A stretch of 64,000 nt of DNA, taken from the sequence record NC_041937.1; one strand, 5' to 3'. A program made the position numbers and the translations under genes. Each line of letters begins with the position of its first letter. Within the stretch, counting starts at the first letter, position 1. Shown here one piece after another: positions 1,013 to 60,946 of this stretch. Below the pieces are notes generated by a model. The model was not told the DNA's origin. It ran no database searches and saw only the letters and a program-made list of their open reading frames with translations. The DNA is from Escherichia phage V18.

Positions 1013-2053
1013 CTAGACCTGTCTCTTCCCATCGTTCCCAATAAAATTCTTACCGAAGATGTGCCCGAACACTCCACTGTTCTTCATCATCTCGCGTGCT
1101 TCTGAGGATGTTTTTGCTGTTTCCAATTCCGCAACAACTTCTGCCCCACGAAGACGGATACCCTCTTTGACAAAAGCCTCCAGACGCTCTTGGAATCCAC
1201 CATCGTCGTGACCCTCTATGGTCCATTCGCGCCCAGGGTTAATATTGCAATCCCCGATAGGGATCTCTACACAGATTGCAGGGTAGTCTGTCAATGTTTC
1301 CAGAAACTTAGAGCGGTAAGGTTGGTGTCCCATCACCACACGGCTCTCATCAGAGCTGGTATAACCTTTCAGGATGGTCATTTTCCAACCATCTTTCTCG
1401 TAGTGATACTGCGCCTCAACCTTGTCACCTTCCAGCATCTTACTGGTCATAGGGTCGGTAACAGTAAACGGAAACTTTGCATAGCGTAGGCACGATGCAA
1501 TAGCAGTGCGATATTTCAGAACATGCTCTTTCTTAACATGGAACTGAACTTTTACCCCATTGTGCTCTTCAGTCTTCCGCTCGCGGATCTTGGTAACGTT
1601 TGGGATACCCTGATCCAAGAACAATAGATATGTGCTTTCAACACCATTGTGCACACTGATCACATCGAAAGTGTCCACCATGCTGAACGGAGCCTTTGAA
1701 CCAACACCTTTATTGCCAACCAGGGCGTTGCTGTTGCGTTTGGTTGACTCCCCGAGGTTCATGAAAGTGTTGCGGACCATCTCTTCTGACATGCCCAATC
1801 CAACGTCCTGCACAAAGAAGTACGGTTCAAGATCTGTAGGAGAGTGAATGATGATCGGCACATCACCCCGTCCAGACTCAACATGGGAGTCCACAGCATT
1901 AAAGATTGGTTCACGGCAGCTTGCCAGCACCTTATCTTCGTAAATCCCTTTAATGATTAGCCCAAAAGTCTCTTTGTTCAGAGAAATTGAGCCCCTGGTG
2001 ACCTCCATATTCCCGGTTAGTACCGCTTTAGTTTCATTACTGTTTACGATCAT
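1013..2053 (-). CDS. GHKL-superfamily ATPase (Bergerat-fold ATP-binding domain, GyrB/MutL/Hsp90-like)
   Basis: 346-aa ORF; N-box-like EPIFNAVDS, G1 box VQDVGLGMS, G2 box GNKGVGSKAPF in the expected order. Confidence 0.6.
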   Translation of the reverse strand: MIVNSNETKAVLTGNMEVTRGSISLNKETFGLIIKGIYEDKVLASCREPIFNAVDSHVESGRGDVPIIIHSPTDLEPYFFVQDVGLGMSEEMVRNTFMNLGESTKRNSNALVGNKGVGSKAPFSMVDTFDVISVHNGVESTYLLFLDQGIPNVTKIRERKTEEHNGVKVQFHVKKEHVLKYRTAIASCLRYAKFPFTVTDPMTSKMLEGDKVEAQYHYEKDGWKMTILKGYTSSDESRVVMGHQPYRSKFLETLTDYPAICVEIPIGDCNINPGREWTIEGHDDGGFQERLEAFVKEGIRLRGAEVVAELETAKTSSEAREMMKNSGVFGHIFGKNFIGNDGKRQV

Positions 2054-2560: not shown

Positions 2561-2587
2561 AATAGAAAATCCCCGCCGAAGCGGGGG
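2561..2587 (-). terminator. rho-independent terminator (hairpin CCCCGCCGAAGCGGGGG then U-run on minus strand)
   Basis: GC-rich hairpin preceded on plus strand by an A-run, directly downstream of minus-strand gene 2599..2979. Confidence 0.5.
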
Positions 2588-5458: not shown

Positions 5459-5729
5459 TTGTCATTTTACACTCTTGAAATTTTAACACAAGACGGTGAT
5501 TGTGTCTAGTGTCTAAAAAGATTTTTTCAACCATCAGGCACACGGTATAACCGTCCATCTTGTTAACAACAAAATCTCCAGGGTGAGGGAGGATGTCTCC
5601 CGGGTTGGGGAAACATAGTCCGCTCAAGAAGGCATCGTCGGTGGTAGACTTAATGGATTTCCACACGCTATCTGCCTGAACATTCTCACCCACATAGTAT
5701 ACGCTACCACATGTCTTCATCATAGTCAA
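5451..5729 (-). CDS. hypothetical protein
   Basis: 92-aa ORF (track start is TTG; an ATG two codons in is an alternative start). Confidence 0.4.
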   Translation of the reverse strand: MTMMKTCGSVYYVGENVQADSVWKSIKSTTDDAFLSGLCFPNPGDILPHPGDFVVNKMDGYTVCLMVEKIFLDTRHNHRLVLKFQECKMTIA

Positions 5730-5922
5730 ATCTCCGCGTAAATTAAACTGGAATCAGTATACTTCTTTAATGGGTAAATATCCTGTCCATAGATGCAGTC
5801 ATTAAACACCTCATCTACCCAAAGGCTACACTTATATCCCATCATTTCTAAAACACCCATCTCTTCTTCGGTAAACTTATCACCGCTCTTGCAAGATGTC
5901 AATACCTCATTCTGTACTCTTG

Positions 5923-6609
5923 CTACCTCGAAGCGGTATTGGCGATCAAATACTCCCCTAAAGGGTGTGCGGCATTAAAGATGCACAGTGGGCGGTTGAC
6001 GTAATAGTCTCCAGGTGTATAAAAATTATTGAGGTCTTTCACTAGAACATTCTTATCAGTCACTTCATTTATAACATCATGCATATCGCACATCTTTATA
6101 TGTTTGAGGATTCCATCCCCCATCACAAAATAAAAACTTGCTGAGGCACTTTCGGCATAGATCTTACTAGATCCGTTGTAGTTGTATTTTACTCGGATGC
6201 TAACGGGGGTTTTTCCTGTCGCGTTAGCCATCATCCAAAGAAATGGCAGCTCATACTTCTCCTCTGAGGAAACAAAAGGTGAAGTAGCCAGAGATCGAAA
6301 ACCTCCAGAGAAGTTGAAAGTTACAGAACCGCTCCGGCGGTATGATACCGCGTATTCTACTTTTATATCGACATACCCGTTGGAATAGGTGTGTCCTTCA
6401 TTATCTAAATATGTCCACTTATCAGACCCAGATACCAATCTACGTTCAATCACCTTCATCACTATAGGAATTAGTGGGTTGGTACAAACCGCTTTTGAAG
6501 TAGCTTTAGCATCTAGAGCCTCGTAAATTGCAGAAAGGATATCTCCAGCTGAGAGATTGGTTGTTATATCATGTTGCCACCTGGTGCTAAAACTGTTAAG
6601 ATTTGCCAT
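5923..6609 (-). CDS. hypothetical protein
   Basis: 228-aa ORF, first gene leftward of the divergent promoter region. Confidence 0.5.
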   Translation of the reverse strand: MANLNSFSTRWQHDITTNLSAGDILSAIYEALDAKATSKAVCTNPLIPIVMKVIERRLVSGSDKWTYLDNEGHTYSNGYVDIKVEYAVSYRRSGSVTFNFSGGFRSLATSPFVSSEEKYELPFLWMMANATGKTPVSIRVKYNYNGSSKIYAESASASFYFVMGDGILKHIKMCDMHDVINEVTDKNVLVKDLNNFYTPGDYYVNRPLCIFNAAHPLGEYLIANTASR

Positions 6610-6649
6610 GAGTAAGTGCTCCTATGTTAGTTTTCTTTCGAATGGGTGC

Positions 6650-6720
6650 ACTATATCTGGAATTTAGAGTAAAGTCAACACGTTTTTGATGTTGACATCT
6701 GTTGAGACAATTGATAAGAT
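6650..6720. promoter_or_regulatory. divergent back-to-back sigma70-like promoters sharing a palindromic -35 core
   Basis: Palindrome GTCAACA-n9-TGTTGAC (6674..6696). Plus strand: TTGACA 6692..6697, 17-bp spacer, TAAGAT 6715..6720. Minus strand: TTGACT (rc of 6674..6679), 17-bp spacer, TATAGT (rc of 6650..6655). Confidence 0.4.
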
Positions 6721-6751
6721 TTCTTCACTTACAGAGCACGAGAGACAACTC

Positions 6752-6844
6752 ATGAATCTTGAAAAATATTATACACCAGAAGAGTTAGAGCGCCTGCTCA
6801 AAAATATAGACGCAAACAGAATAATGCACGGAAACGAGATATAG
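6752..6844 (+). CDS. small ORF (30 aa) in leader of plus-strand block
   Basis: ATG..TAG ORF MNLEKYYTPEELERLLKNIDANRIMHGNEI downstream of predicted promoter; weak RBS; below ORF-track size cut-off. Confidence 0.25.
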   Translation: MNLEKYYTPEELERLLKNIDANRIMHGNEI

Positions 6845-6905
6845 AGTTCGACCTGTCGTGGGAAGAATACCTCCTATTTGGTAAAAAACTTTTAGGAGAA
6901 GGGGT

Positions 6906-7727
6906 ATGCGACTATACCTTATACCTTTCGACATGCACACAGATGAAAACGGGCTGGGAAATCCTTTCTACCCATCTCTGGAGCGGATAGATGATGAAGG
7001 TCCTTACGCAATTGATAATTGTTGTGTGGTAGGGTTGAGGTGCAACGCTCTGAAGGACTGTCTGGTAGATAAAAAGACCGCAATCCTGATTAAAGACAAA
7101 ACTGATCGAAAAATTGTCCAGCAGATGATGCTACATCTGAGCGAAGAGCGTATGGAGAAGTTGAAAGGTGATTATACTTTTGAAGATTTCATCTTGCAAT
7201 ACGGGACAGAAGAAGATAAACTAGCACTTTTTGACGAAGAGGAAGAAGATATGTCACCAATGCAGGACTTTAAAAATTTCATGGCTGATCGTGCAGCCAA
7301 CAAACACATTTCAGACATCGTAAACGAAACTGTGACAGAAGAAATTGAAGAACAGAACTCTGAAGAGGAAAAAGAGCCTCAGAAGGTCGAAGAGGAGATT
7401 GCAGAAGAGGTTCCTGCACTGCCTGATGATGTTGAGGTTGCTAAGGCTTACACTTTCTATTGTCAAACGTTCTACGATGCAGGTATGAAAGTTGATCTGT
7501 CGTTCAGCCAATTTAAGAGTACGTATATTCGCAAATGCTGTGCTTTAACTGGTGAACGTCTAGGAGCGGGACTTAAACCCCTGTTGGTGACCGACTGGAA
7601 TAAAGGTTTCACTAAAGGAAACTTTATGGTAGTATCTCCAATTATGGAGAAAGCTATGACAGATCTTATGAAAACCACCCGCATGACAATGACCGAGTTG
7701 GCAGGTATTTTCAAACACGTTAAATAA
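6906..7727 (+). CDS. hypothetical protein with central poly-acidic tract
   Basis: 273-aa ORF; strong RBS AGGAGAAGGGG upstream of ATG. Confidence 0.45.
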   Translation: MRLYLIPFDMHTDENGLGNPFYPSLERIDDEGPYAIDNCCVVGLRCNALKDCLVDKKTAILIKDKTDRKIVQQMMLHLSEERMEKLKGDYTFEDFILQYGTEEDKLALFDEEEEDMSPMQDFKNFMADRAANKHISDIVNETVTEEIEEQNSEEEKEPQKVEEEIAEEVPALPDDVEVAKAYTFYCQTFYDAGMKVDLSFSQFKSTYIRKCCALTGERLGAGLKPLLVTDWNKGFTKGNFMVVSPIMEKAMTDLMKTTRMTMTELAGIFKHVK

Positions 7728-7760
7728 TGACAGGGGCCATTGGCCCCTTCTGGAGTTTTA

Positions 7761-13456: not shown

Positions 13457-13469
13457 CTATAAAAAGAAA

Positions 13470-13493
13470 GGGGCCAAACGGCCCCTTTTTTTT
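13470..13493. terminator. bidirectional rho-independent terminator
   Basis: GGGGCC-AAAC-GGCCCC hairpin flanked by A-run upstream and T-run downstream, between convergent genes. Confidence 0.6.
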
Positions 13494-60417: not shown

Positions 60418-60885
60418 TCATTTAAGTTTAATGCAGTTTTTAAGCTGGCGTTCCATACGATCCACAACCCTGTCTGGAACATCATGAATGCTTTTACTAC
60501 CATGGCGGTTTTCAACCACGATTACGGTATAACTATACCCATGACTGATCGCCATGTCAATATATTCTTGCACATATTTTTCTTTTGTAAATGTATTACT
60601 TACCACGATACGGTCGTATCCCATACGCATCATATCTTCTACGTTATCTTTGCACCATTTTGCTGCAAGTGTTACTTTACTTGCATCCCAGTTGTAATTT
60701 CCATCATCGTCGTACCAGAACATGTCGTTCTCAAAATGTGGATACAGACCTTCTAAAGATAGCGCACTTGCCAGTGTTGATTTGCCAGACCCTGGTAGAC
60801 CACGCACGATATATAGCATTTTAGACATAGTAATCCTCCGTTTTAATTTCAACGATAGTATACCTAACTGTTTTGTTAATTTCAA
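60418..60885 (-). CDS. P-loop kinase (polynucleotide kinase-like)
   Basis: 155-aa ORF; Walker A GLPGSGKST at N-terminus as in T4 Pnk-type kinases. Confidence 0.6.
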   Translation of the reverse strand: MKLTKQLGILSLKLKRRITMSKMLYIVRGLPGSGKSTLASALSLEGLYPHFENDMFWYDDDGNYNWDASKVTLAAKWCKDNVEDMMRMGYDRIVVSNTFTKEKYVQEYIDMAISHGYSYTVIVVENRHGSKSIHDVPDRVVDRMERQLKNCIKLK

Positions 60886-60946
60886 GTGTTGACACTAGGT
60901 TATTTGTGTGGCAGGATAGACTGACAAAATGACAAATGAGGAACGT

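Follow-up and report, generated by a model that had tools for sequence, protein, structure and literature searches.

The window, by which we mean the whole stretch of 64,000 nt that was analysed, belongs to the genus Vequintavirus (rV5-like coliphages). A total of 116 phage records match the segment 5900-7800 with 85-98% identity, all of them Vequintavirus, with rV5_ev147 as the top match (98.2% identity), and the gene order of the window is collinear with that of rV5. The locus is the point at which the coding strand switches, as the sequence-only reading had claimed: an intergenic gap of 142 nt separates gene 10, read leftward from an ATG at 6609, from gene 11, read rightward from an ATG at 6752. 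The leftward block is comprised of genes 10 to 1 (including rIIA, a cell-wall hydrolase, a MoxR ATPase and small ORFs) and the rightward block of genes 11 to 26. The coordinates of the features are collected in Table 1. Sixteen records labelled as 'Campylobacter phage' (MG065646-MG065690), at least one of which (MG065690) is marked UNVERIFIED, are Vequintavirus genomes that are approximately 90-97% identical to E. coli phages at the gene 10/11 locus, and their host label is probably wrong.

Table 1. Coordinates of the features at the gene 10/11 junction and of related sites (window positions, unless another locus is given).
Feature	Position	Strand	Remarks
Gene 10	5729-6609	-	299 aa in relatives; broken here by a 16-nt deletion at ~5937
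Gene 10 predicted 5' UTR	6610-6643	-	predicted start A6643; leader of 34 nt; 6630-6649 nearly invariant in relatives
P010 -10 box, TATAGT	6655-6650	-	5/6 consensus; kept in 15/16 genomes
P010 -35 box, TTGACT	6678-6673	-	5/6 consensus; invariant in 16/16 genomes; equals rV5 P010
Palindrome GTCAACA-n9-TGTTGAC	6674-6696		arms 6674-6680 and 6690-6696
T5 run between the -35 boxes	6683-6687		invariant in 16 genomes, except for a +1 insertion in L005
P011 -35 box, TTGACA	6692-6697	+	6/6 consensus; invariant in 16/16 relatives; equals rV5 P011
P011 extended -10 box, TG-a-TAAGAT	6712-6720	+	TG 6712-6713; hexamer 6715-6720 (4/6 consensus)
Gene 11 predicted 5' UTR	6727-6751	+	start A6727 predicted from promoter geometry, 7 nt past the -10 box
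Gene 11	6752-7727	+	978 nt/325 aa in relatives; split over three frames here
30-codon ORF (plus stop)	6752-6844	+	16 true gene 11 codons, then 14 out-of-frame codons
A5 run (A6 in all relatives)	6800-6804	+	first 1-nt deletion
Second 1-nt deletion, AC[T/C]CTTATACC	6917-6918	+	from alignment with relatives
Indel sites, including the 16-nt deletion	1041, 5937, 6800, 6917, 11689, 11758, 15120, 23168, 25997, 31440, 39971, 42045, 43560		
Split genes	rIIA ~1041; 346-aa tail fibre 23170; 334-aa tail protein ~39970; tape measure 43560		
Promoter region in L017-L020 (GAP31, SSE121, KpS8, Ro1)	locus ~1120-1160		

The product of gene 10 belongs to PHROG 12338 (unknown function), gave no significant Pfam, NCBIfam or PDB sequence match, and has no homologues outside the genus, all 116 matches being Vequintavirus. 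In records it is labelled 'putative alpha 1-3 fucosyltransferase', a label that found no profile support here. The product of gene 11 matches PHROG 3118 (E = 1e-110) and, more weakly, PHROG 4592 (decoy of host sigma70; 3e-13) and PHROG 1400 (Srd; 1e-9), and is predicted to be Srd-like; no significant Pfam, NCBIfam or PDB sequence match was found for it. An arrangement of gp11 in two Srd/EndoVII-like module copies was considered and dropped (BLASTP E = 0.94). The naming of gp11 in records is inconsistent ('HNH endonuclease', 'anti-sigma factor', 'anti-termination', 'Srd-like'), and in KR698074 the fucosyltransferase label is placed over gene 11. Between the gene 11 stop codon (7725-7727) and the Shine-Dalgarno (SD) sequence (7752-7755) and ATG (7761) of gene 12 lies a G+C-rich hairpin, AGGGGCCATTGGCCCCT (7732-7748), which has no proper T tract on the plus strand and is absent from the rV5 terminator list; it could act as a partial terminator or as an RNA-stabilising element.

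Both genes are damaged in the window. Gene 10 has lost 16 nt between TATTGGC repeats, whereas the gene is intact in all 116 records. In the case of gene 11, alignment with the intact gp11 of APECc02 (97.6-100% identity) places aa 1-17 at 6752-6802, aa 17-57 at 6799-6921 and aa 57-325 at 6918-7724, each in a different frame. The 30-codon ORF results from the shortening of the A run from six to five residues, and the ATG at 6906 resembles the start of a 273-aa ORF because of the second deletion; this ORF is the remainder of gene 11, and ATG 6906 does not belong to the reading frame of the intact gene. When 61 nt spanning the A run were used as a query, none of the 116 records matched perfectly, every top match having the extra base. 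Compared with close relatives, the window shows isolated indels of 1-2 nt throughout, most of which are deletions in short homopolymers, with flanks that are 97-99.7% identical. Besides the split genes listed in Table 1, these indels affect PNK, the 1878-aa gp27 and further tail fibre genes. Formally, the lesions in genes 10 and 11 could reflect a genuine mutant phage stock. The indels are nevertheless read as assembly errors, since a viable phage cannot carry all these lesions; the deletion in the A run is almost certainly such an error, which makes the 30-codon ORF an artefact. The assembly is thus rich in errors, and the split genes and short 'novel' ORFs of the window are not reliable at face value.

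The sequence-only reading had placed a leader ORF of 30 codons downstream of the rightward promoter. The ORF exists, with 30 codons and a stop, and its ATG lies 25 nt past the predicted transcription start, behind a weak SD sequence and ahead of a longer ORF, as could be expected of a genuine leader peptide or upstream ORF regulating the 273-aa ORF; this reading is nonetheless barely credible. In all relatives the equivalent ATG opens one continuous gene of 325 aa (the rV5 annotation starts gene 11 14 codons downstream), so that the ORF represents the beginning of gene 11 cut short by a frameshift, with its last 14 codons out of frame. The deletion that creates it affects a homopolymer and is found in none of the 116 records, and similar frameshifts fill the window, also in essential genes. 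No terminator-like site was found in 6752-6906 and no antiterminator structure, and an Rfam scan of 6400-7100 (E <= 1) gave no match. On comparison with the relatives, a regulatory role of the ORF as a leader is refuted.

The intergenic gap carries two divergent predicted promoters, named here P010 (leftward) and P011 (rightward) after their rV5 counterparts. On either strand the elements claimed by the sequence-only reading, a TTGACA-like -35 box followed after 17 bp by TATAGT (minus) or TAAGAT (plus), can be read directly in the sequence, and in a consensus scan each promoter scored 10/12 with a spacer of 17 nt. The two -35 hexamers are 13 nt apart. Approximately 84 bp separate the predicted starts, with no overlap between the core elements. 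For P010, the -10 box reads TACAGT in one of 16 genomes, with T1, A2 and T6 retained; its end is located 40 nt from the gene 10 ATG, which is preceded at a distance of 9 nt by the SD sequence AGGAG (6623-6619). On the minus strand the T5 run is an A5 tract at approximately -44 to -40 of P010, which may serve as a proximal UP-element subsite, a reading that follows from what is known of E. coli promoters. For P011, the extended -10 TG is invariant in the relatives and the -10 hexamer reads TAAGAT or TACGAT, position 3 alone being variable; C6726 and A6727 at the predicted start are invariant in 16 genomes. The end of its -10 box is located 31 nt from the gene 11 ATG, and the leader of 25 nt contains a weak SD sequence (GAGAG, 6740-6744).

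Two further observations were made next to the promoters. The segment 6626-6649 (GTTTTCTTTCGAATGGGTGC on the plus strand), which covers the start of the predicted gene 10 transcript, is nearly invariant in the 16 genomes and is far better conserved than the adjoining promoter spacers. The first codons of gene 10, read antisense (6571-6604), are 76% identical over 34 nt to P011 at 6689-6722, and include a promoter-like site on the plus strand (6574-6602, TTGCCA-17-TGtTAAGAT). The possibility that this site is a tandem or antisense promoter was considered but is unproven: six of 11 relatives have TTTCCA as the -35-like hexamer, and the coding sequence accounts for the conservation of the site.

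The selective constraint on the promoters was assessed with an intergenic alignment of 16 Vequintavirus genomes, which included the two most divergent ones available. Of the 26 positions in the boxes (the TG and the four hexamers) only two are variable, both of them tolerant positions, compared with 54 of the remaining 116 intergenic positions (Fisher P = 1e-4) and with 31 of the 44 positions that make up the two spacers and the segment separating the -35 boxes (P = 1.7e-7), these column-wise P values overstating independence because the 16 genomes are closely related (85-98% identity). The spacers of both promoters stay at 17 nt in the relatives. Such box-selective conservation is the footprint expected of promoters.

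A matching arrangement was found beyond the genus. Homologues of gp11 with approximately 40% identity are present in Seunavirus (GAP31, SSE121) and Mydovirus (KpS8, Ro1), and in all four phages a rightward block opens with this homologue at a divergent junction. Ahead of each homologue stands (G/T)GTTGACA-17-GATAAT (11/12), whose end is 36-37 nt away from the ATG. Since this sequence is found in front of the gp11 homologue despite intergenic DNA that cannot be aligned, the predicted rightward promoter is conserved in position across the subfamily (Vequintavirinae). The junctions are not identical in other respects: in Seunavirus and Mydovirus the leftward neighbour gene differs, the -35 candidates are 3 nt apart (AATCAA-GTG-TTGACA) instead of 13 nt and form no 7-n9-7 palindrome, and the leftward candidate is weak (TTGATT-17-TATGCT or TATCTT, 8/12 only). 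A second divergent junction is present in the window itself (60830-60929, rV5 genes 81/82), where the -35 candidates are likewise 3 nt apart (TTTCAA-GTG-TTGACA). It carries the published P081 (TTGAAA at 60885-60880, 17 nt, TATACT; PMC3606486) and, on the plus strand, TTGACA (60889-60894) followed after 14 nt by TGgCAGGAT, a candidate gene 82 promoter that is unlisted in the rV5 paper.

Taken at the level of single hexamers, the matches could be fortuitous, with the true promoters of the operons located elsewhere or a phage-specific recognition system in use. Locally, single 9/12 matches are indeed as frequent as in shuffled sequence (6 found versus 5.7 expected), and a separate T4-late-like motif for late genes was reported by the rV5 authors. 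Against this stands the conservation described above, in which the boxes are kept while the spacers are free to vary, as well as the correct orientation and distance of both promoters with respect to the two start codons, and the consensus promoter at the equivalent place in other genera. The probability of a divergent pair of at least 10/12 within a 142-nt gap by chance is approximately 2e-4 (first-order Markov model). Promoter matches are also enriched genome-wide: under the same type of model the whole window contains 43 matches of at least 10/12 versus 17.2 +/- 4.1 expected, and a further enrichment count gave 23 versus 9.1. We hold a fortuitous origin to be quite unlikely. At this locus the rV5-like Vequintavirus very probably has two sigma-70-type promoters arranged back to back, the counterparts of P010 and P011 in rV5, with the 30-codon ORF as an artefact.

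The palindrome GTCAACA-n9-TGTTGAC between the promoters, which in the sequence-only reading provides a -35 box on each strand, is present. Its exact form occurs only once in the window, which would fit a dedicated operator; a search of the window for further copies with up to three mismatches gave chance-level matches only. Its arms are only 2 nt longer than two inverted TTGAC pentamers require. TG precedes TTGAC in 8 of 26 published rV5 promoters (7.4% expected, P = 4e-4) and the window contains 26 copies of the heptamer TGTTGAC (11.9 +/- 3.4 expected), which argues that this extension is a general promoter feature of the phage. Two inverted extended -35 motifs (tgTTGAC) yield the 7-n9-7 dyad automatically, and the palindrome is thus a by-product of two inverted -35 regions for which no separate operator is needed. 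An operator at which a dimeric phage or host regulator switches both promoters, for example for early shut-off, is quite unlikely. Most of the 16 genomes retain the T5 run and the 6-nt cores GTCAAC/GTTGAC, and in the most divergent one, Aya (L009, OX460980), a symmetric double change (GTCAAT...ATTGAC) preserves the dyad; however, the conserved core consists of just the two -35 hexamers, and the Aya change is a single event that could easily be a coincidence. The arm bases at -36/-37 vary, and seven of the 16 genomes have G in place of T at position -37 of P011, which breaks the 7-nt symmetry. One genome from IMG/VR (L006) is changed in the left arm only, and L005 has one T more in the T5 run, which shifts the spacing by +1. 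The -35 boxes at the second junction of the window and in the other genera are 3 nt apart and lack the n9 palindrome, and the half-site centres are here 16 bp apart, approximately 1.5 helical turns, a spacing that is unusual for dimeric helix-turn-helix operators. Conservation of the dyad does not extend beyond the promoter elements, neither a cognate regulator nor a recurring site at co-regulated promoters was found, and no candidate regulator was identified. Of the bidirectional early promoter with operator proposed by the sequence-only reading, the predicted promoter pair is supported by its conservation and its identity with the published in-silico P010/P011, while the operator is not supported, given the variable arm bases, the changed spacing and the different geometry at other divergent junctions. 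There is a distinctly slim chance that the dyad and the T5 tract together form a shared control site, bound by a host factor or an early phage protein that would keep both early operons in balance or turn them off together; if so, the double substitution in Aya would be compensatory. An RNA or DNA hairpin that terminates antisense or read-through transcripts, or that forms a cruciform, is very unlikely. On the minus strand the inverted repeat was picked up as terminator-like in a scan (8 pairs, tail TTTACTCT), but it is weak (-5.4 kcal/mol, z = -1.8, a stability reached by 12 of 200 shuffles), with three G-C pairs only and a poor T tail, and arm complementarity is lost in several genomes. Because the palindrome is located upstream of both predicted starts, neither main transcript contains it.

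The promoter pair is already known, having been predicted in 2013 and annotated in public records. Bidirectional promoters between rV5 genes 10 and 11 were described by Kropinski et al. 2013 (PMC3606486; Virol J 10:76), whose Table S4 lists P010 (6636..6681, minus strand, ...GTG TTGACT TTACTCTAAATCTCCGA TATAGT...) and P011 (6685..6713, plus strand, TTGACATCTGTTGAGACAAT TGATACGAT, with a TTGACA -35 box) (PMC3606486). A GenBank feature of NC_011041 at the homologous site reads 'Sigma70-type promoter; P11', and both 29-nt promoters are annotated in MT682716; the P010 and P011 entries in the paper and in the GenBank records are all in-silico predictions. The window shares with rV5 the locus, the flanking genes, TTGACT and TTGACA, the 17-nt spacers, TATAGT and the TG of the extended -10 box. 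It differs from rV5 in a few spacer bases of P010, in the rightward -10 hexamer (TAAGAT versus TACGAT in rV5, TAAGAT being also present in FV3-type relatives), and in the frameshifting deletions in genes 10 and 11, which are absent from rV5. Our literature search found no transcriptome, RNA-seq or start-site mapping of any Vequintavirus; the activity of the promoters, where they start, their early timing and how far the transcription units extend are predicted here from sequence.

The predicted pair resembles the back-to-back class in the classification of bacterial divergent promoters that was reportedly given by Beck and Warren in 1988: two promoters point outwards with their cores apart and their starts, as predicted, approximately 84 bp from each other, and the upstream regions are common to both. 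In many bacterial examples of this class the promoters are separated by an operator or an activator site, whereas no shared regulator site emerged here. The early promoters of T4 and T5 are recognised by host sigma-70 and combine a near-consensus -35 box with an extended -10 box and A-rich upstream tracts. The consensus -35 box, the extended -10 TG (P011) and the A5 tract at approximately -44 to -40 (P010) are shared with them, as is a position ahead of probable host-takeover genes (rIIA, Srd-like). In contrast to the T4 and T5 promoters, early timing is here a prediction, and sigma-70-type promoters are spread genome-wide in rV5-type phages. The rV5-type phages do not possess the T4 proteins gp33, gp45 and gp55 (PMC3606486).

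In the proposed mechanism, host RNA polymerase holoenzyme (E-sigma70) would bind both promoters after infection and transcribe outwards. The leftward transcript would start at approximately 6643 and run through genes 10 to 3 towards a terminator hairpin at 2571-2586 (minus strand), and the rightward transcript would start at approximately 6727 and run from gene 11 (Srd-like) onwards towards a bidirectional terminator at 13467-13488; these terminators match t003 and t026/t027 of rV5, respectively. Since the upstream contacts of each polymerase would overlie the -35 box of the other promoter, some mutual influence of the two promoters is possible.

By itself the finding matters little, as the promoter pair had already been predicted for rV5 in 2013. 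What is new compared with that paper is the box-selective conservation over 16 genomes, together with the matching promoter in other genera.
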